Assembly: GCA_044892525.1 (NCBI GenBank)
Contig: CM097887.1
Location: 111,206,397-111,270,396 of the forward strand
Origin: Schmidtea polychroa
Lineage: Eukaryota
DNA: 64,000 nt
Direction: 5' to 3'
In this document: piece after piece, positions 20,248-55,666 of the stretch
How positions within the stretch are numbered: position 1 is the stretch's first letter
Layout: the number at the start of each line of letters is the position of its first letter
Notes under the pieces: generated by a model
Database searches by the model: none
Seen by the model: only the letters and a program-made list of their open reading frames with translations
Told to the model about the DNA's origin: nothing
Made by a program: the position numbers and the translations under genes

Positions 20248-20945
20248 TATTGTAAGTATCGTGAACAGGATACACATATGCATACATTCAACAACATCGA
20301 AACTTTGACATTCAGGCGTACATTGCATAATATGCAGTCATACGAATTCAACTTGCGTGAAAATTATATAATTTCAAACAAGTATTATTTACAGTCATTC
20401 AACATCCCGCTCGTTTTAATTCGTTTGATATATTCAACATTTCTAATATTCCATTTTCCATTCTGAAATTCGATCATGATACTTCTGTCATATAACATCT
20501 TTTTTATTTTATCTGGATCCTCAAATCAATCTTCATTTTTATTTGCAACATTTTTTTACAAAAACACGGAATAAAATGTTTTCTATAGAAATTTAGAAAG
20601 TGGCAACAACTAATTTCCACACACAAACACAGTAAAATGCGTGTCAACTTTGGATATGTAGAAATATTGCATGGAATAATAGCAATTTGAATTTTTATTT
20701 TTTGAAGAAACAATGAAATTTCCTACCGGAAACTTTATTGATTTGAATCTTAATATTCTTAAGTTTTTGAGAAAATTTAGAGACAAAGTAGTAAATGATG
20801 AAGACAAATTTCAAGTAGTGAGAAGTGAGGAGTATAAACCGAATATTCATTAAATAATGTTTTTAGGTTTAAACATGGATATTTTCCTGTTTTTCGCTTT
20901 CTCATTTAACCAGTATGAATTCATATTGAAATTTTAAAATGAAAT

Positions 20946-21809
20946 AGTAGTGAGAAGTGAGGAGTATAAACCAAGCCAAATATACAGTATTACGTAATAT
21001 ATGTATGGGTACCCTAGGGGGTGGTATGGTGTTACGTAATTTTGTAAAATTACGTAATTCCATAAAAAGTGACTTGATTATATTTTGATTACGTAATGAT
21101 CGATTTTTCCCGCCATACTTGCCCCCTTTATGTAATAATTGACCTTTGACCTCTTATATCATAATTATACTTCATTAGAGTAGTGAGGAGTATAAACCAA
21201 GCCAAATATCCCTGGAAAAAATTCAATACATTTTGATAGAGTAGTGAGAAGTGAGGAGTATAAACCAAGCCAAATATACAGTATTACGTAATATATGTAT
21301 GGGTACCCTAGGGGCTGGTGGTATGGTGTTACGTAATTTTGTAAAATTACGTAATCACATATAAATGACGTAATTATATTTTGATTGTGTAATGATCGAT
21401 TTTTTAAATTTTACGTCATAATTGACCCCTTATATAATAATTGACCTTTGACCTCTTATATCATAATTAACCTTTGACCCCTTACATATTAATTGACCTT
21501 TGACCTCTTATGTAATAATTATACTTCATTAGATTAGTGAAGAGTATAAACCAAGCCAAATATCCCTGGAAAAAATTCAATACATTTTGATAGAGTAGTG
21601 AGAAGTGATGAGTATAAACCAAGCCAAATATACAGTATTACGTAATATTTGTATGGGTACCCTGGGGGTGGTATGGTATTACATAATTCTGTATAATTTT
21701 ATTATAGATATATATTTATTGAATTATAAACATATTTAAGAAAAAGTCATGCATACATTTTTGAACCCGAGTACTATAATGATGACAATGAATGTGATAA
21801 ACACTCGGA
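20946..21809 (+). repeat. Left terminal inverted repeat of the Maverick, with internal tandem subrepeats
   Basis: Reverse complement of 38020-38822; the agtagtgagaagtgaggagtataaaccaagccaaata unit recurs; bounded internally by an N gap (21810-21962). Confidence 0.9.
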
Positions 21810-21962
21810 NNNNNNNNNNNNNNNNNNNNNNNNNNNNNNNNNNNNNNNNNNNNNNNNNNNNNNNNNNNNNNNNNNNNNNNNNNNNNNNNNNNNNNNNNNN
21901 NNNNNNNNNNNNNNNNNNNNNNNNNNNNNNNNNNNNNNNNNNNNNNNNNNNNNNNNNNNNNN
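21810..21962. other. Assembly gap (153 N)
   Basis: Run of N inside the left TIR. Confidence 1.
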
Positions 21963-22044
21963 AAATATCAACGTAAAATGTAAATGATACAAATAAGAAC
22001 TAAAACAATAATTATGTTAAATAAATTTTATTTCAATACAAAAT

Positions 22045-23361
22045 TTATTCAAGAACATATTGATGTTCCCTTTCATATGGAAAGTGTGGGTGACCATAAT
22101 CATCATTTGGGAAATATGGTTGAACGTATTGATCATTTTCTTCGTCCAGATCACTAACTTCAGCATTGTTACTATGACCCATAACCGTGTTAACTATTTT
22201 ATAATGACCATATGCTACACTTTCATTTTTTTTACCCAATGCCTCTTATCATCATTATTAGTTAGGGCTAATTTTATATTTTTAATTGTAAATAACTGAT
22301 GATTTTTACTTACTATTCGAGATTGTGGTACTGAAATCATCGAATTATTATGATAACATTCAAGATACGATTGATGTTTTAAGTCGGTACCCTTCAATGT
22401 TATTCCCTTAGCCTTGTTGCTCTCTTTATCACCCAAAAGGCTATAGCATTTAGGCCTTAAAAACACCCATTCCTTATATCTACCCTGTTTATTTTCATCT
22501 TTGAATTTACCAATGACGGAATCAAGAGCTCTTGAATATAATTCATGAGATGAATCATAATTCGATGTATCCAGCATGTTATCTCTTACCATAGCTGGTA
22601 AAAGCACATCTAATTTGCATCCTTTAACCTCTAAAAAGAAGGAATCAGTGTCACCTGCAATAATATTGATTTCACAGCTAAAATCATCTCGATATTTTTG
22701 TAAATCAATATATTGCAACTGATACATACGTAATTTGGATAGATCCAGTACAGATTGACCAATGTAACTAGGTCTATCCAAACACACTGAATCCTTATTT
22801 AATAGAACGGCTATTAAGTCATGATCTATTTTATAAGTCTTTTTAAATGTGGGTTTAGAGGAATAAGTAATCAGTTTAGAAGCTGAGTTACACAATCTCA
22901 AGTTCAATCGTTTCTTCAAATTTTCGACTGTCTTTCCATATAAACTATTGTTAAGAAGCTTAAAATAGTTTTTATCAAGAGTATTTGTTGACACAGCTCG
23001 AAGTTGGGTGTTTGTGTCAATGTAATGTTTGAATATAGTAGACTGATGAAATTTGATAGCCCTGTGAATTTGAGTAACTTTTACTCCAAGAGAAAGATAA
23101 AGTTGTAGAAGTTTCCAATGAAGAACATAGTTCTTCTTGGGTAAATGTGTAAGCATCAACTTCTCCACTTTAGATCCTGGAGCACACATTTTTTCAACTG
23201 CAACCGGAAAATCATTAAGTTTATCGTGAATAGATGTTGGAATATCTAGATCCACTTCCATAGTATACCCATATGAAAGTGAATCTAGATCAATAGATTC
23301 ACAGTCTTTTAATAAATTAATTAATTCAGGCTCATCCGTCACCCAAGAAAATTCACCCCTA
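22045..23361 (-). pseudogene. polB: Protein-primed family B DNA polymerase, C-terminal part
   Basis: Motif B KLLNNSLYGK, motif C AGDTDS, FLRPKCY, KAKG; a frameshift in the A-run near 22230 links DDKRHWV to NESVAYGHY. Continues RGEFSWVTDEP from the upstream half once the LTR is removed. Confidence 0.92.
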
Positions 23362-23689
23362 TGTTGGGCTGAGCCGAAGGGTAGCTGAGAAATCAGGTTA
23401 AACTTAACTAAAGTAAAATAAAAAATAAAATAAATAGATTGATGAATAAAATAGAATAGAATATAAGAAAAAGCAATAATTAGAAAATAAGAATTAAAAC
23501 AAAAAAATATAAAAATAAGAACAATTAAAATAGGACAATAGAATGACGAAAAATAACGAAAAATGTAGTAGTTAATAAGGAATTAAGGAAAATAAATAAA
23601 AAACACAATAAAAATAAAGAAAATAGTAAGAAATAACTCAAAAACAAGAAAAACTAAATTAAATTAATAAAATAAGGCGGTACTCAATT

Positions 23690-23831
23690 CTGATTGGTCC
23701 GCATAAACGAAAAATACCTATATAAGTAAACAGCAAACTCACTATAGTCAATGTTAAAACCAAACCAATTACAGGTAAGAAATAGTATTAAGTAATGTTA
23801 AATGTTAAAACCAAACCAATTACAGTTACAG
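23690..23831 (+). promoter_or_regulatory. Putative LTR promoter: inverted CCAAT box, TATA box, duplicated leader and splice donor
   Basis: CTGATTGG 23690-23697, TATATAA 23719-23725, 25-nt direct repeat 23750-23774/23801-23825 with GTAAG at 23775. Confidence 0.55.
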
Positions 23832-25824
23832 GTACTCGACAATCCAGAAAACCGACCAACACTCAGACGACTATTAGGAACAGTTCTATTGACAATTCAT
23901 TCATATAACCGATTTGATTAGTGTATATTTCGGCTCAGCCTTTGGAATCACAGAATTTTTCAAACAATAAGTAAGGATGTATTGCTATTGTAAAATTTGT
24001 TTTCTCAAGGATTAAATATTTTATTATATTAACGTAACGTTTGAATAAAAACTTCTCCATTCGATTTCGATTTTTTAATGATAATATAGTTCGTAAATTA
24101 ATTTAAAGGTTAATGATATATGAATGTTTATGATATGTTTTGTCGTCGAACGTATTGATTGTGATAAAATTATTTTTGAGAAACGTGGAGTTGAGGAGAC
24201 CCACGCCATGGTGTGAGGAGCCTTCGGGAGCTCAGCCGGCGAGTGTGGATCTCTTCAATCACGCAGCTGACGTGGGCCGGAATGTGGGGGTTTCCTCACG
24301 GGTCCGTCGCTGAAGGAAGTAAAATGCTGCAAGCACGAGTTTAAAGTATAGAGGAATGCATTCAAATATTGAAAAGTAGAGCAATCTTAATTGAAAATGA
24401 CTGAGGTGGCTACAAATTCTTATTAGACATCACACTCTGAAATTTCATCTGACATCAGAAATCGTATTCTTGCATCAACCGACACTCTATCTTCTAGTGG
24501 CAAAATACTCTTCTATCAAAACTCACGTCAATAGAGAAACCGAGTACTAATATGTTCATTAAATGTAAAATCATAATATAGGAAGCATAAACGAAGATTT
24601 ATTCAACAAAAATTTTAGTACGAATATATTTTTCAACAAACCCTTTAATTGTTTCATTTCTCCTGAAAATCCACAATAGCGGCAACATGAAGTTCTTTCT
24701 GTAAACGACACTTTCGACCAATATAGGTGGAACTCTTTTGAATGAGTTGCTGTAAATATTCCACGAAATCATAACATCCAAATTGAAAAACGGAGGAAAC
24801 TGCACATCATGAGAATAAATTCCAACGTTCATGCTCGATGAGAACTAATCATAAGTAGCACATTGAATAGCTGAAATAAATCCAACTCGCGGTGTGAGAC
24901 GATCAGCTGCAACCCGTTAACGTAGATAATGAGAAAGCAGACGAGACAAGTCACACGCATTGCTACACATAAATACACACTAACATATGCCGCATGCATT
25001 CTTTTCCCAGTCAGCTAATGACGATGAGAACACAAATTGGAGTACACGCACATGACATAATTATCTCCGATAGATATCTAACTTTCAGATTCATGTTGTT
25101 AATGATTTCTACGAGTGAGCTATGCATTACCGGATGACTGTTATCAATTAGCTAGATTTCACAGATTAATTGCACAAGTAAATTCCATAACAAGAATGAA
25201 TGGATCGATTTTCAGGATAGGAATAAAAATCTAATCATACTCGAATCCTTAAAAATCTAATGGTAGCACAGTGATTGAATATGTTTTTTCGATTTTCATA
25301 TACCAATATGAGTTACGATTTGAGGTAATTAATTTAAGGAGCATTCCCGCGGCACTAGAGAACTTTGTTTTTACGTTTTTAAAGATAAATATCTGTATTC
25401 GAAAAGTTATATGTAAAAATGAACATTAATTATTTAATTATGCAAACATTCTAATGGTTCCTAAACAATTTCTACGAAACCGATAACTCTAACGTTCACT
25501 GGGTCAATACATTTGCGAGTCATCTTTCACCTAAATAGTTGAGAATCTCAGATAATAATAGGTAATAGATATTCTAAGCATAATCATAAAATTTTGGCAA
25601 AGTATTAATCAGATGTTAATTTCTCTTGCAACCCCAAATAGACATCCAAGAATTCACTGAATACAATTATAAAACACTATTTCTAACGGAACCATATCAT
25701 TGACCTTTTATCCATTTTACTTAATTTTTCGAAATTAATCAATGATCATGTCCCATGCTGGTTTAGTAGAAATCGCTGATCTTAATTCTTATTCTGATTG
25801 TTTTTCTTTGTTACAGTTATCAAA

Positions 25825-26567
25825 ATGTTGCCAAGCTCGAAGCCGTCGCTCAAACCCTGTTTCTCCTGTGCCGACAAAAACACCGTAATCCGAGAATTAC
25901 AGGCCCAGATCGGTCGATATAAAAGAAGATCGACGATCTGGAAGGTACATGGTTTAGCCCAGTACAAATGAAGGAGGTACAAAAGAAATTGTACCGCAGC
26001 GAGCATTGTCGCGATGCTTTGATAAGCGAAAGTAGAGCTCAGCGTAGCCTAATCAAAGAGCAGTCCGAAGCTCTACACAAAGTTTACGTTCAAGCCGCGA
26101 CAACCCGAAAGATCGTTAGTATCCCGATTAAAGAAGCGGACAATATCTTCCCCGTCCACCATGAACCTTCATTTAGTTCACCACCCTTATCAAAAAGATC
26201 TTGTCGTGAATGCGTGGAGGCCGACCTCTCCCCTAGGCCAACGGACGTACCTACTCCCGGCACCGGCAAGGTATTGCCTTCAACCACGACGTCCTCAGCA
26301 ATCTTGTCTGCCAACCCTTCGAAACCTAAACGCCGCCAATTATCCAGAGCGGAGCGTAAGAAGCGTCAACGTGAACGAGCGATCGTCAAACAACGGGAAC
26401 TATCTTCCAACCCCCCAAGTACTTCGAATGATCCCCCCGTAACGATCGATCTAACTGTAGGGATCCCAGGGCGAATCATATCTGCCGCTGGTGTGACTTG
26501 GGAGGAGAATGCCTCCGAGTTTTTTGATCTGGATGAGCTATTGGCGGATGCGGAATGGGAGAAGTGA
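25825..26567 (+). pseudogene. LTR-encoded ORF (CxxC, coiled coil, basic patch, acidic tail) with a 1-nt frameshift near 25925
   Basis: MLPSSKPSLKPCFSCADKNTVIRELQAQIGRYKR/IDDLEGTWFSPVQMKE..EHCRDALISESRAQR..EQSEALHKVY aligns with 46284-47045; preceded by a ttacag acceptor. Confidence 0.75.
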
Positions 26568-27151
26568 GAATCGCAACACAATACAACCGTGCAGAGTGTT
26601 AATGGACAAATAAACTATCATGACTCCTTTTCCTCTTAATCTATTTTCCACTAAGTATACTCGTTATATAGTGCCATAATTATCTAGTGTATTATGATAA
26701 TAGAATAAAGAAATTTGTGGGTTATTTCTCGTTGTTGTTTTGATTTAAATAGTTGCGGTAAAGGTTCAAAGTAATGTTCACAAAGTGATTCATAAAGCGA
26801 GAGTAAATTTTGAGTTCGAGAGGCAATAGTCAATTTTGTGTCGAATTGTGGGACAGGGTAGAGAGAGAATCTGATGAGGTAAACAGACGTAAGTCCTTCC
26901 ATCGGCAGTCAGAAAGGGAAGTCGAGGCCTCAGTAAGGAGTAGTCCTAAGGTAGGGGCTCACCTGCTTACTGGAGTTTCGCCGGCATAGCACATTTCCAA
27001 CGTGAAGCAATTCGCGGGTGCTATGTTGGAGGGTAAGTTGTGCGGGGTCCTGCTCCGGGTTGACACGGGCGTATGTAGCGTGACGATATGGGCACGCATC
27101 CCCTAGACAAAGACGTAGATTGAGCAGAGTCAACCGAGCGCTACCCCAGCA

Positions 27152-28560
27152 CCTAGGTAGTTTTTGGCTAAGAGCCCAGCCGTACAAATTATTAATATCG
27201 ATATATAGAAGTTCAGTATTTTCATTTGTATTAACATAATGTTTGTTTACAAATGTCAACCCCCCTCTTATACTACCCTCAAAGAAATTAAACATCTCCA
27301 TGTCTTGAATCAACTCGATGGGTTCGTCTAAAGTCATCAGAGCTGAATTCCAAGACATACCGGGAATGCCCAAGAAGTTTAAAGGTTCAAGACGATTATG
27401 AGCTAAAGATTTATTTCGAAACTGCTGGAAAAAGTCAGCTAAAAGAAAGACATCTAGTTTTAGATAGACCATCATATAATCACAAAGGTTATTACAGTTG
27501 GTTTCCCTCCATATAATTTCAGCCATAGAATATTCGTCTTCAGTAACACCATCCCAAATTGGCGGTAATTGGGGAGTTGACCGAAGCACTTCAAGACTAG
27601 TGGCAAAATTATATGGGAAAATTCCTTTATTATTAACAATGGTTCCCTTAAATTCTGATCGTGTTATCGGTAAATTAGTAAGAGTTTTAACAGCGTCATT
27701 TAACGAACTATTAATAAATTGGCAGGAATCGATAAATTTAATATTTAAACCACCTATTCTCCCAGATAATGTTAAGAACTTTTCAGTTGTCGTTGGAATG
27801 CATGAAATATTCCAAGATTTAAAGCTACTCAATCCGTGTTTGAGGATATGATGAAGATCATACCCTCGCAAGTTATGGAAAACAATTGGAAATTCATATC
27901 TTATTTGACGAGAATTATTACAAGTTGAACAAGCTGCTCCCAAATATTTACCAGTAAAGTGATCATGATCTTTAGTCGGGTTTACTAAAGTTTTCTTGCA
28001 AAGATAACACATAACTGCGGAAGAAAAAGAAATAAGGTCAGCATCTGTAAAAATAATTTTCTTTTTCGAATTTTTATAAAAATAAGGTAAAACTGTTTTC
28101 ATACCAATTTTTTCAATCTCTTTAAGGAAACTAACAATACAATCTAACCCTAAAAAACTTTTATATAATTTAGTCCCTGTGAAATTATTTATTAGCAAAA
28201 GACCTGCAGAAATCGGCAAGTGCCTTTGAAAGTATTTATTATCAGTAGGTAAGATAGCCTCAAAGTCAGCGTAAACCACAAAAGGGGGAGTAACTGTTTT
28301 AGACCAATCATTAAAATATAAATTCTTATTTAATGGTAAAGTATATAAAGTTGTTCCTAATTGATTTCTCTCACATAAACCTTTATGTTTATCTAAAGAT
28401 TCAAGTGTACAGAAGCCATTTAAACAGCGATTACACCACAGACTTTGAATTCGAGTACTAGTAACAGTAGAATTACGACAATTTAAAAGTCTATCAAGAT
28501 TAGTGACTCCTATATAATGAAAAGAATCACTGCTTTCCAACAAAATTAAATTAATCGGTC
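27152..28560 (-). pseudogene. polB: Protein-primed PolB: exonuclease, endonuclease VII-like insert and motif A
   Basis: ExoI VYADFEA, CxxC..DHDHFTGKYLGAACxxCN, ExoII FHNLRGYD, ExoIII YLKLDV, motif A YIDINNLYG; the ORF-track tail after SQKLPR is LTR read-through. Confidence 0.92.
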
Positions 28561-29776
28561 TTCCGCTACAACTTTCGATCTATGTATGATGTCAACATAA
28601 GGATGTTTTAATACTTCAGAATTATTTAAAATATCCACTAAAGCATCCTCATCGTATGCAAGAACATTAATCGAAAGCCCTGGATTTTTATCTTCAAATT
28701 TAGGTATATTACAGAGACGCATCGGTAAGTCAGAAGGATCAAAGACTAGATCAGACAGATTATAATTATTAATTCGATTTCTATGATTGCCATCAACGTC
28801 ATCGTATTTCAAAATAGCCAAAATGCTATAGATGAAACACAAATCATCCGTATTGTTGATATTTATTACGCAATGTTTATTTAATAATGATTTAGGAGTT
28901 GGAAGAGAACCCCTCCCGCTCAATCTACTTATTTGAGAAAATTTTGTAATAACAAAATGTATTTCTTTAATTTTATTAATATTCCACTTACTTCCCTTTT
29001 CATTAATTAAAGTAATTTTCTCATTGAGAATAGCAATACCTTCATCTAAAAAGGTATCACTCATGGGTCTTGCAGAATTTGAAATGACGAAAGATTGAAA
29101 TTCTCCATCTTTTTCAAATTCCACTTCGATACAAAATTGAATCTTTACAGAACCCATTTCTCTGGTAACATTATTAAATTTATTAATTAAGGGCGTGGGT
29201 ACGGTTAAAGAATTTAAATTTAAATTTTCAACCATCATTTTAACTATGGCATGTGATTTACGTAAATCATAATTTACAACCGGTTCTAATGATCCACCAT
29301 ATTGTATCGTACTATCATTAATTATTTCGGCATCAGAGTCAGAAAGAGTTATTATATCAACTCCATTTTGAGAGTCAGATAGAAAATCTATATCCACATC
29401 ATTTTCAAAATCAGGAAGAGTTACCATATTATTTAAAACTACCTCATCGTCTTCAGAATCCGAGAGAATAATAATTTGATCATTATTATTTAAATTTTTA
29501 ATTTTAGATGGACGAGGGTTACTTATAGGCAAATCAGATTTCCTTTTATTAATTGAAAAATTAATTGGTAATTTAAAAATTTGTTTTTTCTTTTAAAGAT
29601 TAAATCGATTTAAATGATCTTTATGTTGATCATAAAAGTTAGAATAATTTAATTTTTCAGTGGAATTACAAATGGGGCAAACAAAATAAATAACACGGTT
29701 ATGGGGTTGGCCATAGTATTTTTCCATAGTTTTATGACAATCTTTGTCATGAAAGGAAGAATTACAAAACTTTGGA
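28546..29776 (-). pseudogene. N-terminal (terminal-protein) region of pPolB, separated from the polymerase by a frameshift
   Basis: GSKWNINKI, LLNKHCVININNTDDLCFIYSILA, FEDKNPGLSINV and INLILLE..FHYI (the last in the polB frame) are typical Polinton pPolB N-terminal motifs. The frame extends upstream of 29532 through one TAA to a CPIC..H..H segment. Confidence 0.75.
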
Positions 29777-30029
29777 TATAAGATACCTAAGTTTCAAAAG
29801 AAATTATCAAAGGATTGCATTATAAATAAAAATGAATATATGAAAATGAATATATGAACATCACAAATTGATTATTAGAAATAAATATTTAAAAAATCAA
29901 AAATACTATACACACATAAAATCTTTCATCCAATAAAATTAAAATGATTTGTTAAAAGGAATCTAATTGGTCAACTCGATTTTTAAAATTAATATATATA
30001 CTGAGTGCATGAAATTATTATATTTAATA

Positions 30030-30586
30030 ATGCAACAATATAAAAGTAATTTTATTATCATTATCTAGTATTGCTTAATCATTATTCTAGAAAGTTCAGT
30101 GAAAAAGATGGAGAAACAAGTAAATTCAGATATAATAAAGTTAATTCTACAGGAAAATTCAACATCGGCAGTTAATCTTATTAGAAAATCTCCTGTTCAG
30201 TTCCTACAATATTCTATGGAATATTTAAAATACCCAATAACTTATTCATTTAAAGTAAATATATTTATATCATTTAATCAAATATTAATTAAATTTTTTA
30301 TTAGGAACCTGTAACTTTGAAACAGAGTTTATATAATATACAAATAGGTAAAATTGGAGATATCGATAGAAAAAATATTTTAGAATTATTGTTGGCTATC
30401 AATAAAAATATTCAATTCAATGAAAACTTTACATTTATGAATTGTGATAAAGATTATGCTTTAGAAAATATTAAAAAAGAAAATGAAAATTCACATTTTA
30501 TGATAAAAATTCAAATTCAGGGTTTTAAAGAAGGAAAAGAAACAATCAGCCCTATATGGAAAATAATTGATACTAATATATTATAA
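30030..30586 (+). CDS. Maverick orphan protein, 153 aa, two introns (exons 30030-30045, 30091-30254, 30305-30586)
   Basis: Splicing GT-AG introns of 45 and 50 nt fuses ORFs 30099 and 30317 into one frame (462 nt). Confidence 0.6.
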
Positions 30587-30813
30587 GTCTTTATTTGTTT
30601 CTTATGTTATGGTATACATTATAATTTAATTAAAAATATTTCATTTAAAATTTTTTTTTATTGATAAATTTAAATTGATTAAATAAAATAATTAAATTTA
30701 AATAAAATCATAAATTATTATTATCTAATAAATTCAAAATTGTTTTAATTTTTACTTTGAGTAAATTAAATTAAATTCAAATTTGAAAAATAAATTAAAA
30801 TGAAATATAATAT

Positions 30814-31149
30814 TTAAATTAATATTAATTTAATTAAAATGAAAATATCTTTAAATACTAAAAAATATATATAATACTTACATTTTATCATGTTTGCATT
30901 AATTTCCTTGGAATTATTTCGAACCATTTTATCATTGTTGGTGTTTAAGTTTTTGTTGTTCATGTTATTTGAGTGGTTGCAAATCTTGCTATTGACGTTG
31001 TTCATGTTATTTGAGTTGTTTTAATTGTTGTTGTTGTTGCAATTCATTACCTAGAAAACATTATAAGAGAATTATTAATTAATTAATTACATAAAACTTA
31101 CAAAAGTTTGGGTATTGATAAAAGTGACTTTTAAATGAATTGTTTTCAT
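30814..31149 (-). pseudogene. Asn-rich low-complexity Maverick ORF with a 51-nt intron candidate (31051-31101)
   Basis: MKTIHLKVTFINTQTF|VMNCNNNNN*NNSNNMNN...; GTAAGT donor and TTTCTAG acceptor; one internal stop. Confidence 0.4.
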
Positions 31150-31314
31150 TTATATACTAGATATTACACAACAATGATTCAATAAAATAGTAACCAATAA
31201 AATTCAAGAAACCAAACACGTAATCACATACCATTAAATTATATTTACTAGTAGGATGACATAAAAAATTACAAACTAACAAGATAATATTTATTTGATT
31301 AAATTTTCTTATAT

Positions 31315-31700
31315 TCAAAGATCTTTCATTGACTTCAACCACGCTTAACAATGTTGCCCACATGTTTTTTTCAATGGACTTTGATAGCGAATTTTATTAT
31401 ATTCAATTGGCATTAACAATTATTGAAGTTTTGATATTAATAGAGGAGGATAATAAAACCCCATGGGATCAAATGCATATATTTTTTCCGGTTTCACATA
31501 AACTGCGAGCCAATGCTCTCCCTTGAGATTACAAGATTGAGTATTTACAATTAAAGCCTTGTTTACATCAATATATGGTATTTTATCTAATGGAAAAACT
31601 CCAAGAAATTCAGCTCCGAACAATCTTCGACCTATGTATTCAATCTGAATAGAACTATTATCAATAAATTAAAGTAATAAAAATGAAATTCTTACTTCAT
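31315..31700 (-). pseudogene. Adenain-like cysteine protease, one 41-nt intron (31655-31695), two in-frame stops
   Basis: MN|SIQIEYIGRRLFGAEFLGVFPLD..IVNTQ..GEHWLAV..FDPMG..YQSPLKKTCGQHC shows the catalytic H, D, Q and C of the adenovirus protease family. Confidence 0.85.
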
Positions 31701-31762
31701 TTTTAATAATTATTGTTTCCTAATTTGCTTTATAGTTCAAGCCAATCATTTTCAAACTTTGT

Positions 31763-32992
31763 TTACACTAGTACTGTACGATTGGATGTAATTTGAATCT
31801 CTTTTTCAAAGACGCCATAGACTATTACAGAAATTGATTCTGTTAGAGGTGTTCCAAATTTAATATCAAGTCTTAAATTTCCTTGCTGTGGCAATTGACT
31901 TTGATTAAGATCAAAGTCTGGAGCCAATACAAATGTAAAGAATGGATACTTTTCTTTAAAGTCAGACATACTAATTCCACAATTAATATTCTTATTAAGG
32001 TAACCCATGTTTCTAATTATTGACTGCATATAATTATAATTACTATAATTATCATTTTCAAAATCTTGACTATATTTTTCACGATAGTCGCTTCCTTTCA
32101 ATAAAGTTATTGATTTTACATTATTGTGGTCGTACATTGAATAAGAATTTGTTAGTGATCCATTATTTCTTTTATTTCTTTGAAATGTTACAAGGATAAA
32201 ATTTGGTAATCGCCGATCACCAAAGATTTGTTCTTTATAAAAAGAAGAAGATCCAGTAGGTAACGAAAATTCGACAACTTCCTTGCTTCTCAAAGGATAA
32301 ATTGCATTTCTTGAAGCAAGTCCAATTTGATGACCAGCTAAAACGGATGGTTCAACTCGAACTCTTCTTACCATTAATTTTGCATCTAATAATTCAATTT
32401 TAGGTTCTACTTTTGTACATGTTAAACTATGTGATGGACTTGATCTCGTCAATTTAATTTGGACACTAACACCAGGTAATAAATATTTTGGTTGATCCAT
32501 AAAATCAAATTGTATTGGTGAACATAATGAAAATGGTTTAGATTTTGCAATCCACGCTTTTCTTATATTATCATCTTCACTGTACCCCATACCTTCTAAA
32601 CATGTACGTTTTGTATCATGATTGTAATTTAATATGGTTTCGATAAATGCTTTATGAGCAAATGTATCATTTCCTCCTTCAACTTTAATAGAATTAAAAA
32701 TTAATTCAGATTCTTTAAAAAGAGTTTGGAAAAAGAAATTGTTTGCAGTTACAACAGAATCATCAGAAATATTTTCACCTACATTATTTACAACTTTCAA
32801 CTGAAGATAAAGTAAAGTATCATTCAAATCTAAATATTCGGTTTGAGATCCGTTAATGTAAAATTGAATTGAAGAGGTACCAGTATCCGTAATTGAATTC
32901 GTTGGATAAATATCTTCAAATGAACCATGCTCAATTACTGCTTGAGGTGATGGTCTATCAAAAATACATAATTCAGATTTTGCACTAATCAT
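31763..32992 (-). CDS. Major capsid protein (double jelly-roll, Polinton PY/hexon)
   Basis: KSELCIFDRP..QAVIE..IYP..IQFYING..YLDLNDTLLYLQLKV N-terminal signature; intact 409 aa. Confidence 0.88.
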   Translation of the reverse strand: MISAKSELCIFDRPSPQAVIEHGSFEDIYPTNSITDTGTSSIQFYINGSQTEYLDLNDTLLYLQLKVVNNVGENISDDSVVTANNFFFQTLFKESELIFNSIKVEGGNDTFAHKAFIETILNYNHDTKRTCLEGMGYSEDDNIRKAWIAKSKPFSLCSPIQFDFMDQPKYLLPGVSVQIKLTRSSPSHSLTCTKVEPKIELLDAKLMVRRVRVEPSVLAGHQIGLASRNAIYPLRSKEVVEFSLPTGSSSFYKEQIFGDRRLPNFILVTFQRNKRNNGSLTNSYSMYDHNNVKSITLLKGSDYREKYSQDFENDNYSNYNYMQSIIRNMGYLNKNINCGISMSDFKEKYPFFTFVLAPDFDLNQSQLPQQGNLRLDIKFGTPLTESISVIVYGVFEKEIQITSNRTVLV

Positions 32993-33390
32993 TTTTCGAA
33001 TATAGTTCCAAAACCTTTCATTCTTTTGTTTATATGCTTCTTTAATGTTTTTCTGCGTTTAATCATTCCACCTTTTTGTTCATTCTCTTGTTTATTAAAA
33101 ACATCAGATACTTTATTAATTACAGTAGGCAAATGTTGAATTACATCAGGTAGTGAATGTTTAATTTCAGATAAAACATTTGATTTTAAAGCAAGTAGAA
33201 TTTTTGAATTGTTATTTATTACATCATGTGCAGTTTTCATACCAAAATTACCTATGCGTCTAAGAATTGGTAAAGCAAATCGACCTATTGTTTTTAACCA
33301 ACCTGTTCCATATTGTTTACCAACAAAATATGGTAAATCTCCACCAGATTGACTATTACTATAAAAGTTTACAATATCAGGATTATTCAT
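32989..33390 (-). CDS. Core/membrane-active virion protein (adenovirus pVI/pX-like conserved Polinton ORF)
   Basis: FY..QSGG..YFVG.QYGTGW..IGRFALPIL amphipathic motif and basic C-terminus; position between minor and major capsid genes. Confidence 0.65.
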   Translation of the reverse strand: MNNPDIVNFYSNSQSGGDLPYFVGKQYGTGWLKTIGRFALPILRRIGNFGMKTAHDVINNNSKILLALKSNVLSEIKHSLPDVIQHLPTVINKVSDVFNKQENEQKGGMIKRRKTLKKHINKRMKGFGTIFEK

Positions 33391-34414
33391 TTATTTTACG
33401 AAAATGTAGTGTTAAATGTGTTTTGGTGTCTTTTGAAAATTTAACTAAATTTCCACTATCGTTGCGAATATTAATTTCAATGTTGTTTATAGATGAAGAT
33501 GAAATTGGAAGGTACATTGGGTTCTTTATTTCTAACTGTACTACCTCTCCCTGTTCATATCTTTTAATCCATATCGATTTTAATAGAGGAACTCTTACAT
33601 CACCAACATTTATTGGTTCAATGATATTAGAATAAATAAACATTTGTTGATGAATTTTAAATATTTTTGGAATTTTCACACCAACAAAGTCTTTTTCATT
33701 ATAAGTTTGATTCTTTAATCCTAAAGCTTTTGTTAATTTTTGATCAAATGTGATATTTGAAATATCATCTACAAGTGTTATTTTTACCAATTCTTGATTT
33801 TGAAGATTTATTTCTTTAAATGGAGATGGATTAATTGTCAATAAATACCCTCGCAACTCTGATAAAGTAGTTAAGAATAATTTATCTTCAAAATAATGTT
33901 CGAATTTTGTCTTGATATCGTAATTTATAGTTATCCCAATTTGTTCAATGATATTATTTTCAGTAAATTTAGGTAATTTAATTCGACAATGGTCAGTTTT
34001 GCTAATGATTGATATGGTTTTTAATTCAAACTTAGATGCATGTTTTGTGTCAAGAAATGATATTTTAAATGGAACATGTGGACAAACTATCACTAAGTTG
34101 TCATATCTTTCCAAGAACACATCAACATCTGGATTATATGTAGAATTTAAAATTTCTATGATTTTGTTTTGATTATTAATTTTCAAGTATTTAGTTTCTT
34201 CGCATGATTTTTTAAATTCGTATTGTACCCAGGAATTACTGTAATACGGAAAATGATTATACACAAATGTAAAATCAATCAAAGCTACTTCCCACTTCCC
34301 AATCAAATAAATTGGGTTTTGAAATTCAACTTTAAAATTACTAGCATTATTATCAGGATAAATAAGAGGACAACTATTACTAGGTAAAATCATATAAAAC
34401 TGGTTTTCCTTCAT
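33383..34414 (-). CDS. Minor capsid protein (penton)
   Basis: FYMILPSNS..YPDNNASNFKV..PIYLIGKWEVAL N-terminus and YLPISSSSINNIEINIRNDSG..LTLHFR C-terminus typical of Polinton pentons. Confidence 0.82.
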   Translation of the reverse strand: MKENQFYMILPSNSCPLIYPDNNASNFKVEFQNPIYLIGKWEVALIDFTFVYNHFPYYSNSWVQYEFKKSCEETKYLKINNQNKIIEILNSTYNPDVDVFLERYDNLVIVCPHVPFKISFLDTKHASKFELKTISIISKTDHCRIKLPKFTENNIIEQIGITINYDIKTKFEHYFEDKLFLTTLSELRGYLLTINPSPFKEINLQNQELVKITLVDDISNITFDQKLTKALGLKNQTYNEKDFVGVKIPKIFKIHQQMFIYSNIIEPINVGDVRVPLLKSIWIKRYEQGEVVQLEIKNPMYLPISSSSINNIEINIRNDSGNLVKFSKDTKTHLTLHFRKINE

Positions 34415-34419
34415 AATAT

Positions 34420-35542
34420 TTATTTAATCAATTGGTTTTCAGATATCCAGCTAGGATGTTTATAACCATGCCATTTCACATAGTATTGTTTATATTTCCC
34501 GTCCGATTTAGTTTTTAAAATCTCTTGAATTCTGAAGATTGTGGGTGATGGAATGACTTGTAGTTCTGGTTCGTAGAATTTGCCACTGACTTGATCGTTT
34601 TCATTATCTGTAATAAAGTACATGACCGGATTTTGATTAGTATCTATTTTCGATATTTTAAAAACTTCATCACTCCAATTGTTATCAAAATTCTTGATGA
34701 ATGGAGAAGCACTGATTTTACTTATTCTAACATGGTCTCCTACTTTATATTTCGGCTTTTTTGTTTTTGATTTATCTTGTTGTGATATCCAAGTATCAAT
34801 ATTATTTGTTGAATAAATATCGATTGGTCTCATTCCATTTATTCCTCTATGAGGTGAAAAATTGTAACTGTAAATTATTTTTGACAATACATTTATCCAC
34901 GTTTTATTGCCTTGATATACAAAATATTTTTTCAAACGATCTCTTAAAGTACGATTGAATCTTTCCACGTGCGCTGCTTTATATTGTGAAAATACTGAGT
35001 AATGATTTATTCCTTTGATAATTTCTTTAACTTTGCTATTATAAAAATCTTTACCTAAATTTAAAATTAATTAAAATTATTTAATTTATAATTTTACCCA
35101 AATCTGTTTGTAAATTACGAGGCTGTCCGTCAGCAAATAATGTTTTGAATGCATCAGCCATTTCATTAGCTGATTTAGATTTTGTTGGGATAGCACGAGC
35201 GTATCTACTAAATACATCAATACATGTCAAAATATATTTGTATCCTTTATTAATTTTTGAAAATGGAATCATTTCCATTAAATCCATTTGCCATAAATCA
35301 TTAACACCAAATGTTTTATAAGATCTCGTGGGGAATCTTTTTAACATTGGTTTATTTAGACTGTAGACTAATTGATTAGATAACCATTTTTGAGTTTCTT
35401 TCTTTGATTTATTTACTCTTTTTGCAAGTTTTTCTACACCACCAAAACCATCTGGATCTTTCGGGTTTGTCCAAATCGTTTTGAGTTTTTTCTCTAATAT
35501 TTTCTTCTTTGATTTGACCTTTTTGGAAAATGTTTCCTTCAT
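34420..35542 (-). CDS. Retroviral-like (RVE) integrase, 359 aa after removing a 43-nt intron (35055-35097)
   Basis: WQMDL (D), LQTDLG|KDFYN (D), HVERFNRTL (E), C-terminal chromo-like YYVKWHGY; the splice joins ORFs 35081 and 34420 in frame. Confidence 0.9.
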
Positions 35543-35626
35543 TATTACAACATGATGTTAATATATTTAAATCTAAATTATGTTTATCCGGTAATGAATT
35601 CTTAGCACCCATTATGATATTATATT

Positions 35627-35959
35627 TTAAGAATTTAATGACGAAATTGTGCTTATAGCCGATAATACAATTGGAATTAATGTACCTAAAAATCCGCCTT
35701 GTTGTTTATACATTATTTTTCTCATTAGATTTCGATTTTTTGTGTTAACTAATGATAAAAGAGATTTCTTATGTCTTTTTAATACAAACCTTTTAGCTTT
35801 ACTAATATTTACATTACCACGAACTATGTTAACAATAGCTTCGAGTAAATCATCAATAACAAATGATGGAAAAGCTTGTAATATACTCGTCCTTTTATTA
35901 TTTGGAGCCTTTAGCAAGGCGTTAAAATATGGTAAGCTACGTTGTAATTTCATTGTCAA
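35627..35959 (-). CDS. Small conserved Polinton ORF ending in QQGG-FLGTLIPIV (putative membrane-active peptide precursor)
   Basis: 110 aa, basic, C-terminal amphipathic GGFLGTLIPIVLSAI. Confidence 0.6.
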   Translation of the reverse strand: MTMKLQRSLPYFNALLKAPNNKRTSILQAFPSFVIDDLLEAIVNIVRGNVNISKAKRFVLKRHKKSLLSLVNTKNRNLMRKIMYKQQGGFLGTLIPIVLSAISTISSLNS

Positions 35960-35997
35960 TGATGCATTTTATTAATTAATTTGTTTATAATTTAATC

Positions 35998-36120
35998 CAA
36001 CTCTTCTTTTTCAATGATTTTTTAGTCTTATTTATAGTTTTTTCTTTCCGTTTAGTATTTCTTTTGTTTTCTTTCTGCTTTGTAACTTTTTCACGTTGAA
36101 CTATAACTTTTTTAAATGAC
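35998..36120 (-). CDS. Small Lys-rich basic ORF (possible DNA-condensing core peptide)
   Basis: MSFKKVIVQREKVTKQKENKRNTKRKEKTINKTKKSLKKKSWIKL between the ATPase and the next gene; start position approximate. Confidence 0.35.
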
Positions 36121-36144
36121 ATTTTTAAATAATAATAATCTATT

Positions 36145-36783
36145 TCATTTTTGTTTATAAATCGTAACACCTTTTTCATTGAAAATATCTGTTCTAACAC
36201 GTAAATCATCTGGACATTGTTGAGTAAAATCGAAAAATAAATACCCATGTGCTATCTTTGTTGCATCTTGGAAGGATTCAATTAAATATCTTCTATCATT
36301 AGGATAAGCCTGTCTTGCGAGAAAATCAATTATAGTTGCGTCTCGAGGATTTTTGAAAATAACTAAATATTGTACATTCAAATTACGCGTTCGATGACTT
36401 CCGCCTTGATGAAATAAATTTTGTGTTATAAAAATAACCGTTACTCCGATATGTCTACTGGTTTTTGTAAATAAATTATTAAAATCTTTCTCTTTATTTG
36501 TTTCCTGATATAAATCATCAATAATTATAACATCACCTTGATGTAATCTAGATGACCAATTTTTATCAAATCCCTTCATTATATTCATTTTTAATTTACA
36601 AAACTGATCTTGTGTCATACCATGCTCGTCATCAGCTCCCTTATGCCAGTATATTTTATTAAATTTTGATTTGAACATATTCGATTGTAATAATTTACAA
36701 ACAAATAAAGTTTTTCCACTACCACTGGGACCTACAATTTGATAAACGGCATCATTTCTTAATTCCATCTTAATTAATCTCAT
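36145..36783 (-). CDS. FtsK/A32-like DNA packaging ATPase
   Basis: Walker A GPSGSGKT, Walker B VIIIDD, FITQNLF..RTRNLNVQYLVIFKNPRD, HGYLFFD. Confidence 0.92.
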   Translation of the reverse strand: MRLIKMELRNDAVYQIVGPSGSGKTLFVCKLLQSNMFKSKFNKIYWHKGADDEHGMTQDQFCKLKMNIMKGFDKNWSSRLHQGDVIIIDDLYQETNKEKDFNNLFTKTSRHIGVTVIFITQNLFHQGGSHRTRNLNVQYLVIFKNPRDATIIDFLARQAYPNDRRYLIESFQDATKIAHGYLFFDFTQQCPDDLRVRTDIFNEKGVTIYKQK

Positions 36784-36857
36784 TTCATTAATATTATTGT
36801 TTATATTTGTTTAAATTTATTATTATAAGTATATAAAAATTATTTAAATTTTATTAC

Positions 36858-37304
36858 ATGACTTCATTATTATTGAGCAACATTAATTATAAAGGTAAGT
36901 GTTTAGTCAAAAACATGAAATTCCCATTAGGTAAACCCCAACAAGTTGTGGATAGAAGTGGGAACTATCCAATTATATTTTACAAGTCGGGTAGATGTCG
37001 GATAATGGCATGCAAGCAACCTCTTAAATTAGTTGATTTGAAATATAAGATACAAGATTTACAAATTCAGTCCATTACAGTAACTGCTGATATCGGTAAA
37101 TTTATAAATTTATACGAATTACAACATAAAGCTAAATGTATGTTTGAACCGGAAATATTTCCGGCCTTACGTCTTCAAAAGTATAATCCAGTTTGTGTTA
37201 ATGTATTTTCAAGCGGGAAGGTTGTATTACTTGGAATAAAAACTCTAGACTATAATCTCTATGTAGAGAACATTATTTCAGAAATTAAAATGTTAATTAA
37301 TTAA
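36858..37304 (+). CDS. TATA-binding-protein-like protein, 148 aa
   Basis: FEPEIFPALRL..PVCVNVFSSGKVVLLGIK matches TBP repeat 2 (YEPELFPGLIY..LIFVSGKVVLTGAK); IIFYKSGRCRIMACK matches repeat 1. Confidence 0.8.
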   Translation: MTSLLLSNINYKGKCLVKNMKFPLGKPQQVVDRSGNYPIIFYKSGRCRIMACKQPLKLVDLKYKIQDLQIQSITVTADIGKFINLYELQHKAKCMFEPEIFPALRLQKYNPVCVNVFSSGKVVLLGIKTLDYNLYVENIISEIKMLIN

Positions 37305-37343
37305 TTTTGTTTGTATTGATTTTGTTTTTAGTAGTTAGAAAAA

Positions 37344-37730
37344 ATGTCAAAAGGTAAAGAATATATTTTTATTTATAATTAATAATCTTTATATCTAGTT
37401 TACTTATTTGAAGTAATTTTAAAGAAGTTTCAAGAATTATACCCAGGAATAAGAAATACCATAGATTATTGTGCACCAGAGTTACTTATAAATAAAATAT
37501 TTCGTTTAACAGGTATTAATATAGAACAACTTTTAGAGTTGCACTACGATATGGTTCTAAGGTTTGACACTAGATGCATTGAAAATTGCATTGTTTGCAA
37601 AGATTCTATGAGATTGTCATGTCCCAATGGGTGTCCATGCTGTCACGACTTTAAAAGGGATCAATCAGTCCATATCTTATTAGCTGAAATGCGTAAAGCA
37701 TACTACACAGATGAATTTAACTTGAAATAA
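37344..37730 (+). CDS. Cys-rich Maverick orphan, 113 aa, one 45-nt intron (37354-37398)
   Basis: MSK|VYLFE... spliced in frame with ORF 37539; C-x3-C-x2-C..C-x3-C-x-CCH cluster. Confidence 0.6.
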
Positions 37731-37790
37731 AATGTTTTATATCATTTGCCTTTTACGTTGTTATTGTGAAATAGTCAAAGTTTTTATTGT

Positions 37791-38019
37791 NNNNNNNNNN
37801 NNNNNNNNNNNNNNNNNNNNNNNNNNNNNNNNNNNNNNNNNNNNNNNNNNNNNNNNNNNNNNNNNNNNNNNNNNNNNNNNNNNNNNNNNNNNNNNNNNNN
37901 NNNNNNNNNNNNNNNNNNNNNNNNNNNNNNNNNNNNNNNNNNNNNNNNNNNNNNNNNNNNNNNNNNNNNNNNNNNNNNNNNNNNNNNNNNNNNNNNNNNN
38001 NNNNNNNNNNNNNNNNNNN
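37791..38019. other. Assembly gap (229 N)
   Basis: Run of N at the inner edge of the right TIR. Confidence 1.
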
Positions 38020-38822
38020 ACCGAGTGTTTATCACATTCATTGTCATCATTATAGTACTCGGGTTCAAAAATGTATGCATGACTTTTTCTTATATATGTT
38101 TATAATTCAATAAATATATATCTATAATAAAATGATACAGAATTATGTAATACCATACCACCCCCCCCCCTTAGGGTACCCATACATATATTACGTAATA
38201 CTGCATATTTGGCTTGGTTTATACTCCTCACTACTCTAATGAAGTATAATTATTATATAAGAGGTCAAAGGTCAATTATTATGTAAGGGGTTAAAGGTTA
38301 ATTATGATAGAATAGGTCAAAGGTCAATTATTACATAAGGGGGTTAATTATGGCGGAAAATCGAGTATTACGTAATCAAAATATAATTACGTCATTTTAT
38401 ATGTGATTGTGTAATTTTACAAAATTACGTAATACCATACCATCAGCCCCTAGGGTACCCATGCATATATTACGTAATACTGTATATTTGACTTGGTTTA
38501 TACTCCTCACTTCTCACTACTCTGTCAAAATGTATTGAATTTTTTCCAGGGATATTTGACTTAGTTTATACTCCTCACTACTCTAATGAAGTATAATTAT
38601 TACATAAGAGGTCAAAGGTCAATTATTACATAAGGGGGGTCAATTGTGACTGAAAATAAAAAAATCGATTATTACGTAATCAAAATATAATTACCTCATT
38701 TTATATGCGATTACGTAATTTTACAAAACTACGTAACACCATCCCACTCCCTATGGTACCCATACATATATTACGTAAAACTGTATATTTGGCTTGGTTT
38801 ATATTCCTCACTTCTCACTACT
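38020..38822 (-). repeat. Right terminal inverted repeat of the Maverick
   Basis: Reverse complement of 20946-21809 with scattered mismatches; ends CTCACTACT. Confidence 0.9.
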
Positions 38823-38968
38823 ATTTCATTTTAAAATTTCAATATGAATTCATACTGGTTAAATGAGAAAGCGAAAAACTGGAAAATATCAATGTTTAAA
38901 CCTAAAAACATTATTTAATGAATATTCGCAATCCACCCAAATGCATATTTAAAGACTTTGAAGATATA

Positions 38969-41986: not shown

Positions 41987-42473
41987 ATGCCTAGGCCGCG
42001 AAATAATTTAAGTGTTTATAAAAAACGTAAATTTGTTTTACAAGAAGTGGAAAATGCGCGACCACTTCCCAATGAACAGTTACATATATTGAAAGTAATA
42101 TTAAACTTTACATTTTGAATTATTTATTAATTAGTTAGGTAAATCTGTTGGTTCTAATGTTTATCAAGCTTTTTTCCCAGATAATCAAGAAACATTGCTC
42201 AGTATGCCCACAAAATTTAGAGACACTATTTATGTAAATAGTGGAATGTTCGTAATAGCAGAAAAAATTATTGAAAATGAAAAGGTTTGGGGAGAGATTC
42301 AGTTTGTTTTATTAGAAAATCAAATTGATCATATCAAATATAATAAATTGTGGCCAGTTGAGTTTACAGAGAAAAAAGAAAAGAACGTCTTAGACAGTTA
42401 CATTGATAAAGATTTAATGCCACCGTCAGAATCAGAAAATGATTCGGAAGATGAATCATCTAGCGAAGAATAA
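41987..42473 (+). CDS. EIF1AD: Probable RNA-binding protein EIF1AD, 148 aa (exons 41987-42094, 42135-42473)
   Basis: KKRKFVLQEV..LK|LGKSVGSNVY..LLSMPTKFRDTIYV..EKVWGEIQFVL..LWPVEF and acidic ESSSEE tail match EIF1AD; 40-nt GT-AG intron keeps the frame. Confidence 0.85.
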
Positions 42474-44058: not shown

Positions 44059-46283
44059 AAAAGCTAGGAACCACTCACAAGCACAGATTATTGAACCATA
44101 TTCATTTATCGGATAACATATACATTGAACGGAGATCGAATTCAGCTCAGTCGAACGAGTCTATCTAAAGAAAACTTATATTACTTTGATCTAACACCTT
44201 CGGAGATTTTTGGTAAATTATGTTTTAGATTTTAGTATGATGATCTAAATATTTATTATGAATTTAACAAGTCGTTTATAATCCAATAAATTTCATATTT
44301 TAAACGAAGGTGTTGCTTTCTCTCTATGAGGCTGGCGACGGCGTCCTCTGGAATCCGGGTATGATGCAGTTGGGTTTTTCGAACGTCCTACGGAGAGGAA
44401 ATTTACGAATATGAACTCGGGAAATTGAAGTGATAGAACTAGCCCAGGATCCATATGAATTTAGAAACTAAAGTGATTACTTAATGAATACGAGATTTAT
44501 GCTAACCAGAGTCATCATGCCCGGATTTCAAATGTCGTGGTCGCCAGGTGAACATTTATTTAATTGATTTTCTCATAATTCCATTATTTCTATATTGATT
44601 CACTGAATAATTAAATTGTATTGTTGCACATTTATTGAGAATGGAGTTGCGATGAGACGGGTCGAGTCGTCCTTCACACCGGTCCAAGAGCAGTGGGCAG
44701 AGATGCGTACTGCCTTGGGTGGGTTGTGAGGAGCGAGGAAACCATGTGAGATTTAACAAATCAAGTAAATGATTCTTTCATCGAGTGTAATCCACCCATC
44801 TTAGTCGTCGAAAACCATCCAATGCAGAAACTTCTGAGTGACATAGTTTGAGTCAACGATACCTTGGGAACTCCCGGAGGCATACCATTAGAACTATCAT
44901 CAGCCTTGTATCCAATCACGTCATTAATAATCTTTGATTTGGAGCCTTATTCGTCTTGCATTGAGAGAAGCGACTGCTAGAACGTCTGCCGGAAGGAGTT
45001 ATTAATTTCGAGTTTTTACGAGAGATTCTCTGTACTAAGCCCATTTCGTATCTTACAATCTGAAGGTGCTTTGGAAGCTACACCGCCGGGAGGTTAGCGA
45101 ATAGATCCATCGTCTTGCTTATCGTCGACTCCGGGGGGACTTAATCATCAACCGACATCTAGCCGCTGTCATCGATAATAGCCGTTTTAGAGATGAATGT
45201 AAACATCTCTAGATAGTAGATTTAAACACTGGCTATGAGTCCGAAGGAAACGGTCGCCAGCGACATCGGGTGGGCGTAGTAGACTGCCGGGAAATCGGTT
45301 GATAAGATATCTGAAGCCTCAGTCACGAGCGAACGAGTTGACAGTTTTTATCTCAAAACCAATTAGTGGAGCAAAATCTAAATATGGAATCGATCTTATC
45401 TAGTAGATTCGCAATTTAGCCCACACAATTAGATTCACGAGTTTTCTATGACACCCTCTTAGATTTCCACCTATCTAGAAAGTCAGCCAGCGATGTCATG
45501 TCTAGTGTGCAGATAGTGGATAAATTTATCTCACGATTGTGTAACGGTAGACCAGGAGATGGTAGACTACATGTCCAATCCGACAGTGAGATTACGTCAT
45601 ACTGAATAGTAGAATGTTCTACCTAGTCCACGACCACAGGCTGAAGATAAATCATACAATGCATGCATACGAACAGACCTGACAACATCTGCTAGCCTAC
45701 CTCCAGGGTAAAACTAATACACCACTACTCACAAACAAGCGTCGTTATGACGACATTTATGGCGCAAGATTTAAGATGATCAAATAGCAAATTATGATAA
45801 GACTTAAATTGAATTTTGCGGTTCTTTTATGAAGCCGATCACGGCGGTTTAAAACCCCAATAGTCACCCGTCATACCGAACTATGTTTTTGTGACTTCAC
45901 GAGTGCGAAATTTTACGAGTATAGTAGGACGGGGAGTGGGAATGCTATTACTAGGGAAGGATAATTATAACAAACTCGACTGTGGTAAATTAATAAAAGC
46001 ACATTAAATAAAAATGGCCAATTTCGGACAACAAACATAAATTCAAAGTTAGGATAAATGTATTATTTTGAGGAAGCCCGTTTTCTTTTTTTTTTTTTTT
46101 TCTCTATCAGTGTGGATGCTTGCAGACAAATGAGTGTAAATGTTGACCAGTGATATGGGTAAGTGGGTCATTGTCGAGTAGGATGATTGGAAATAGGGTA
46201 AAAATTGTAGTCAAAATTTGGAAACGACACTCCAACGATTTTTTTTTTAAACTCTACAATTAACAAAACGTCTTGATCTTTAG

Positions 46284-47045: not shown

Positions 47046-47586
47046 TTGGACGTGTCGTTGACCCATCTCTCATTCCACGCGATCAAGCTCAACAATCTTT
47101 ATAAACGACTTAGATGATGCGTGTTGTGTACTCTCCTACGTGTTGTGATCGGAAATTTGTGTTCATATGTATCCTCAATTTCATTAATATAATCATAGTA
47201 TTCGTTGTGTTGTCCCGTAAAAGTTATAGAGTGATGAGTTATGACTGGACGAATGGATTGGAATGATCATTGGAGAATGTGGGTCGTCCCCTTGGACCAG
47301 GGTCGTACCGAGAATACATGACGAGTAGGGGTAAGACCTTCTTAGGCACCGAGGAACCTGAACTGAGAGGGGGTCCGTAGTAGTCCTAAGGCAGGGGCTC
47401 ACCTGCGGACCAACTCCGACCCGTGTGAGCAGTACCAACGTGGGTAGATCATCACGGGCTCACATGAGGGAATATTTGTAAATCATGCGGGTTATGTGGG
47501 GGAAGGGCCCCGAGCTAAAGGAACATGATGCCAGCTGCACTACGAATGTCCGTTTGACTCCTCCCATATACGCCCAACATGATTTT

Positions 47587-47604
47587 TGGGGGCTCAGCCG
47601 GGAT
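47587..47604 (+). promoter_or_regulatory. Primer-binding site complementary to tRNA-Pro
   Basis: TGGGGGCTCAGCCGGGAT, 7 nt after the LTR end; compare the MLV tRNA-Pro PBS TGGGGGCTCGTCCGGGAT. Confidence 0.85.
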
Positions 47605-55615: not shown

Positions 55616-55666
55616 GAATTGCCATTGAAAGACCCAGCCAGCAGAAAAGCGTCGATTAATTCACTA

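Follow-up and report, generated by a model that had tools for sequence, protein, structure and literature searches.

Barreat and Katzourakis 2021 (PMC8097293) describe intact Mavericks of vertebrates as lacking introns and state that Kapitonov and Jurka 2006 agree with this. None were seen according to PMC8547959, and the core genes of nematode Mavericks with wasp/krma cargo are called intronless (Widen et al., bioRxiv 10.1101/2022.07.12.499685). In eupolintoviral elements of dinoflagellates, introners are mostly post-integration insertions, about 25% of them in coding regions (PMC12166617); group I introns are reported in PMC12220804. In adenovirus E2B, translation of pol and pTP starts on a short exon far upstream (9 nt in the HAdV-A31 table, PMC2794291). 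New introns of Daphnia pulex are AT-rich and have direct repeats, with parallel gains at one site (43/90; PMC4202315). Here, a stretch of 64,000 nt from Schmidtea polychroa (GCA_044892525.1, CM097887.1, 111,206,397-111,270,396), referred to as the window, was analysed; it contains a Maverick/Polinton element in which core genes are interrupted by short GT-AG segments. The genome is AT-rich and comprises 781 Mb in four large contigs.

The reading preferred here, with a probability of about 0.72, is that the protease, the protein-primed polymerase (pPolB), the integrase and two accessory genes (g1 and g3) of this element are split by short GT-AG segments which the host spliceosome would remove as ordinary, obligatory introns; those of the protease, the polymerase leader and g3 are conserved across element families, and that of the integrase was likely gained twice at one site. 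Transcription would be nuclear, with splicing by the major (U2-type) spliceosome of the host. In the literature searched, Maverick core genes with inherited spliceosomal introns are not reported, though Repbase entries or supplements could mention them; passages of 10.1101/2023.08.22.554363, PMC8502044, PMC11296320, PMC11244446 and 10.1101/2024.03.25.586562 contain nothing on such introns.

The GT-AG segments and their conservation

Six GT...AG segments of 43, 41, 45, 50, 45 and 51 nt had been placed in the element by an initial annotation, and all were found at those positions and lengths (Table 1; GC content 5-20%). Stops occur in all three frames in five of them, the 50-nt segment being open in one frame. 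By eye, the six look unrelated in sequence, and TTAAT/TTGAT-like words, possible branch points, are seen near acceptors. Scanning for AT-rich GT(A/G)A..YAG segments of 39-55 nt gave five places on the minus strand between 28546 and 36810, of which three are annotated introns and two are not, and only the three annotated introns in the plus-strand stretches. The two extra GT-AG candidates, at 33399 and 32082, lie inside open frames and were rejected. Because the DNA is so AT-rich and extra candidates occur in open frames, the GT-AG pattern alone is weak evidence.

The segments were compared with 40 ten-kb genomic stretches of other families and with 25 metagenomic loci. Position and ends are kept while interior and length drift at the protease, g3 and g1 introns and at the pPolB acceptor; the integrase site is mostly empty in relatives. 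From this comparison it is very likely that the segments are real introns, and the data support their behaving as spliceosomal introns under selection, several of them old. The exon sums given by the initial annotation (integrase 1080, protease 345, g1 462 and g3 342 nt) were confirmed; its continuous protease frame was not, as two in-frame stops interrupt the window copy. Its list of intronless genes stood: for the capsid, the penton-position product, the ATPase and the TBP-like protein there is one open reading frame (ORF) each, matched in relatives mostly by a single tblastn block. From the host introns with which it had compared sizes, one of 40 nt (42095-42134, in an eIF1A-domain gene) was read from the sequence.

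Protease

The protease intron follows ATG and 2 nt in 42/47 loci, namely 35/40 stretches of this genome and 7/7 metagenomic loci that reach the gene. All 42 share one layout (ATG, two bases, GTAAG..., AG, frame unchanged), and in the five misses the gene is absent from the stretch or deletions are present. Intron length ranges from 36 to 47 nt, falls into all three classes modulo 3 (18/18/6) and is accompanied by interiors that cannot be aligned; the proteins are 46-68% identical across loci, the metagenomic ones 46-56%. Two values of 54 nt are an artefact of a duplicated donor motif. Loci L137, L138 and L149 carry a tandem duplication of the protease start codon together with the donor motif. 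Since no sampled family has an intron-free protease start, intron removal would be needed for the lineage to make protease. The two stops of the window copy are present in 0/29 other copies, and protease exon 2, together with both integrase exons, has a nonsynonymous divergence (dN) of 0.11-0.27 against a synonymous divergence (dS) of >1.

Homolog P0122 begins with Met and one residue, followed by the exon-2 motif. P0121, P0123 and P0124 look like proteins whose starts were called inside or after the intron, in line with the earlier expectation that ORF-based annotation would miscall these genes.

Probable polymerase leader and long intron

The 51-nt intron does not belong to a gene of its own, and a stand-alone 'g4' was rejected; the intron sits in the likely 5' leader of pPolB. 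The ORF block from 29786 downward is the N-terminus of pPolB, the homologous blocks forming one frame of 1,295 codons in metagenomic locus L039. The main exon starts at AG|GT or AG|GC in phase 1 in 26/26 loci with a match (26/40 genomic stretches), and upstream of it stand short exons, mini-introns and then a long intron. Within this genome, the conserved acceptor suggests that splicing is needed to make pPolB. Leader exon 2 has one stop in the window copy and is open over 78 codons in 29/29 other copies; the donor GT of the long intron is retained in 28/28. Exon chains were found in 9/11 sister loci by a search that demanded phase 1, so that phase is no test, and two of the chains look partly mis-parsed; the last exon base is T in 8/9, giving Cys with the two bases that follow. 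A pPolB intron of 1.1 kb that holds g1 in antisense, missed by the initial annotation, is likely. In both the protease and pPolB, the start codon would lie on an upstream mini-exon, and both genes would need splicing. In sister families (L116-L135, L139-L155), long AAT/ATT microsatellites fill the long pPolB intron and the post-protease spacer.

Accessory genes

Of the 40 loci, 30 have the g3 intron, at 39-50 nt, and 11 have the two g1 introns, with g1 and g3 homologs at 23-50% protein identity. At about nine further loci, a g1-like match lies in an open frame that lacks the acceptor, and sharing of the g1 introns is therefore less wide. The g3 homolog P0135, whose N-terminus is short, is uninterrupted, and P0136, also a g3 homolog, reads through a stop-free 39-nt version of the intron, which could be retained in one family. 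In the L117 sister family, g1 lies behind g3, in the window family inside the likely pPolB intron; the gene would therefore have moved together with its introns. No Pfam match was obtained for g1, g3 or the penton-position ORF, and a search of proteins of 51-163 residues with g1 exon 3 found no homolog. The proposal that the introns are old and co-evolved with the host holds in so far as several are shared across families (23-68% protein identity); it fails for the integrase intron.

Integrase site

The search for integrase homologs yielded 190; no integrase relative was found in IMG/VR. Exactly one residue separates the two exon translations in 106/120 homologs, which therefore lack the intron (13 matched one exon and one fell short), and this residue is Gly in the 36 homolog rows listed. 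The gene is uninterrupted in 22/22 metagenomic loci with both halves. In the genomic stretches, 12/40 have no insert, and 28/40 carry GT(ATT)nTTAG at the same base as the window intron. The sister-family motif GT(ATT)nTTAG gave 1,323 exact matches (control 0), against 84 for the two insert-free families that were counted. The repeat is also present outside this assembly, as run X5 contains a loose end of AAT repeats at the integrase site.

Inserts were measurable in 81 of 90 position-ordered ATT copies, the downstream motif not being within reach in the other nine. They span 45-177 nt (median 87); 52 are pure repeats, and 78/81 are multiples of 3, whereas the 43-nt window intron is not. At this length, the insert would be too long to read as protein beside a catalytic residue. 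Five ATT copies, two of them 67 nt long, have a TTAAT branch-point-like word and a T tract before AG.

The ATT group has an insert-free copy as its sister (support 97/96). A single clade of the two intron-bearing groups was rejected (p-AU 0.011, for 17 rows in a quick tree), which points to parallel gain, and two changes are the fewest on the tree; it is likely that the intron was gained twice at one site. Direct repeats border the inserts: 8 nt in the TTA-codon ATT copies and, in the window, 11 nt of which one is mismatched; near-identical borders are expected from a short duplication. Each intron would have begun when a few bases were duplicated at a site resembling AG|GT, and AT-rich filler (window family) or ATT slippage (sister family) would have lengthened the insert until it was spliceable.

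The same base in both families, the moderately supported deep branches and the plausibility of exchange between co-resident families would also fit a single gain in the lineage of this genome, followed by replacement with ATT in one family and exact loss in at least three others. Polintons have no RNA stage. At least three exact losses from such an element would be required, the tree asks for two changes at fewest, and the outside relatives all lack the integrase intron; we regard this history as highly improbable.

Taken further, and with parallel gain retained, the site may be a hotspot of intron birth at which a few duplicated bases and ATT slippage produced some 1,300 copies of 24-177 nt, some acquiring a branch-point-like word and a T tract. 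Alleles that are too short would give an integrase poisoned by poly-isoleucine and longer ones an active enzyme, so that slippage would drive a switch, and the 43-nt window intron would be an older, independent product. This extension is put forward tentatively and is doubtful in its entirety.

Between families, the integrase exons have dN 0.11-0.20 and dS >1.2 or saturated, and both are under purifying selection.

Transcript evidence and contrary observations

A search for runs that contain the sequence gave none recorded as RNA. Contigs of four runs were aligned to 31400-35600, a comparison that covered the integrase and protease introns; such contigs give neither strand nor expression level. 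Run X1 tiles the region evenly, introns included, and looks like DNA. X2 contigs end in plus-strand poly(T) at 35395-35500, in integrase exon 1 and near a minus-strand AATAAA; early polyadenylation of an upstream transcript and internal priming on A-rich DNA are both possible.

Several observations weigh against the preferred reading. In the contigs of the four runs, neither the integrase intron nor the protease intron shows an exact join of its exons. The RNA-like run X2 covers 6/30 bins, and in one of its contigs the integrase intron is unspliced; the interior of the protease intron is covered by three contigs of X3. An inexact X3 join at the integrase site, which skips 45 nt with one other letter between (net 44 nt), was rejected as splicing because of this net length, its short side of 23 letters and the insert-free relatives that could explain it. 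Within the window family, the introns vary no more than the exons; pure ATT inserts are stop-free and need no splicing to keep the frame; the leader search gave no chain in 2/11 sister loci. The integrase tree is small and only moderately supported in its deep branches, and recombination between families may bear on it; co-resident insert-free families could mobilise others in trans. We infer splicing of the element's introns from their evolution.

Trans mobilisation is in itself an alternative for the integrase: the inserts would stay unspliced and inactivate the gene, insert-free families would supply the enzyme, and nothing would change for the introns of the protease and the polymerase. 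The presence of such families, the unspliced X2 contig and the lack of an exact join agree with it. Against it, the two inserts form exact GT..AG units at the same base, both integrase exons have a low dN/dS, insert-bearing copies outnumber the counted insert-free ones by about 17 to 1, and the five ATT copies noted above have branch-point-like words and T tracts; we consider this decidedly unlikely.

Alternatively, real introns could double as a regulated gate, integrase and protease being made only where splicing occurs, or ATT length tuning integrase output. The third intron of the P element is an example of such a gate. Start codons on mini-exons, an intron beside the catalytic Asp, and the unspliced and poly(T)-ended X2 contigs, the latter stopping in integrase exon 1, fit this idea, as does the distribution of insert lengths: no position-ordered ATT insert is <45 nt (0/81), though inserts of 24-39 nt exist (8/28 in a search biased towards short ones). 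Families without an integrase intron have spread too, however, and repeat expansion by itself yields long alleles. Splicing-gated control, raised in the initial annotation, gained no direct support, since no exact join was seen and the unspliced contig fits gating, poor splicing, antisense RNA and DNA equally; it seems rather improbable beside ordinary, obligatory splicing.

Element structure and neighbouring features

The element is a Maverick/Polinton (eupolintovirus, adintovirus type), as seen from its inverted repeats, 6-bp duplication, pPolB, integrase, ATPase and protease. The arms of the terminal inverted repeat (20840-21962 and 37867-38928) are 87-99% identical, and an identical 6-bp target duplication lies at 20808-20813 and 38823-38828; such a duplication was also present in the one of ten other copies with both ends captured. 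Copy number is at least 92 (exact matches to a motif spanning the integrase donor), with at least 40 copies at 99% identity in the genome. Pfam matches were obtained for the retroviral-like integrase (rve, E 9e-9), pPolB (E 1e-17) and the TBP-like gene (E 9e-13), and above cut-off for the A32-type ATPase and the adenain-type protease. Intronless core ORFs are a property of the described vertebrate and nematode Mavericks, not a taxonomic criterion, and the window element departs from it. The window copy is dead for several genes, owing to private stops, a frame break and the insertion in pPolB.

The match of the major capsid ORF to a double jelly-roll domain (PF21738) is below cut-off. The order of the major capsid and penton-position ORFs is kept in relatives; the labels penton, PX and PZ are putative and partly positional. 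In metagenomic loci L033, L039 and L053, the penton-position ORF has two matching genes in tandem, and the TBP-like gene is kept in sister families and metagenomic relatives. The insertion in pPolB has a 214-codon ORF of its own (25923-26567), which by eye resembles the ORF at 46284-47045; no DNA match to the insertion was found elsewhere within the window. At the left end, just inside the terminal motif, 20840-20947 contains about 105 nt of the right-end flank (38824-38928) in inverted orientation. The region 46000-64000 has about 39% GC, strong A and G skew and tandem repeats, and is probably a large retroelement.

Table 1. Features of the Maverick/Polinton element in the window (window coordinates).
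Feature	Position	Strand	Remarks
Maverick/Polinton element	20814..38822	.	18,009 bp including a 3,790-bp insertion; ends AGTAGT...ACTACT
pPolB main exon	22215..29786	-	PF03175; stop near 29594, frame break near 28550, insertion
Insertion inside pPolB, TG...CA, 3,790 bp	23362..27151	.	4-bp target duplication; solo-LTR-like (long terminal repeat)
Likely pPolB intron, 1,095 nt	29787..30881	-	encloses antisense g1; acceptor conserved, donor pairing putative
Likely pPolB leader exon 2, 169 nt	30882..31050	-	Asn-rich, phase-1 end; one private stop
pPolB leader intron, 51 nt	31051..31101	-	
Likely pPolB leader exon 1, 48 nt	31102..31149	-	putative; start codon
g1, 153 codons, function unassigned	30030..30586	+	exons 30030-30045, 30091-30254, 30305-30586
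g1 introns, 45 and 50 nt	30046-30090 and 30255-30304	+	
Adenain-type protease exon 2	31315..31654	-	PF00770; two in-frame stops private to window copy
Protease intron, 41 nt	31655..31695	-	phase 2; position conserved
Protease coding exon 1	31696..31700	-	start codon + 2 nt
Major capsid protein, single ORF	31763..32992	-	PF21738 E 0.0016, below cut-off; syntenic homologs
Minor-capsid (penton)-position ORF, single ORF	33383..34414	-	positional label
Integrase exon 2	34420..35054	-	chromodomain-like end
Integrase intron, 43 nt	35055..35097	-	not a multiple of 3
Integrase exon 1, 445 nt	35098..35542	-	PF00665; phase-1 end just after second catalytic Asp
A32-type packaging ATPase, single ORF	36145..36783	-	PF04665
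TBP-like gene, single ORF	36858..37304	+	PF00352
g3, Cys-rich, 113 codons	37344..37730	+	exons 37344-37353, 37399-37730; intron 45 nt (37354-37398)

Implications and comparison with known systems

Since surveys define intact Mavericks by intronless ORFs, lineages such as this one would be scored as dead or truncated, and miscalled proteins of this lineage are already in public collections. Inherited protease and polymerase introns imply that the lineage has long been transcribed in the nucleus and depends on a single kind of host spliceosome, a dependence that may restrict jumps between hosts. Most surprising are the probable double gain of the integrase intron and the microsatellite form that it takes. 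The ATT-repeat intron offers some 1,300 natural alleles for testing intron birth and minimum length, a question that rarely has population-scale material.

The element resembles the vertebrate Mavericks (PMC8097293) in its terminal inverted repeats, 6-bp target duplication, pPolB, integrase, ATPase, protease and capsid genes; intact elements of that group are reported without introns, whereas three core genes have introns here. With the nematode Mavericks (Widen et al.) it shares intron-bearing accessory genes in an animal Maverick; introns there arrive with captured host cargo. Dinoflagellate introners (PMC12166617) are likewise spliceosomal-type introns inside Polinton-like elements, but they are copies of intron-generating transposons, while the positions described here are inherited across element families. 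The new introns of Daphnia pulex (PMC4202315) are found in host genes and at low allele numbers, in contrast to the roughly 1,300 pure triplet-repeat introns of a mobile element. Adenovirus E2B (PMC2794291) also has a protein-primed polymerase that starts on a short exon far upstream; here, the element is an integrating one, and its leader would have between two and several mini-introns of host size.

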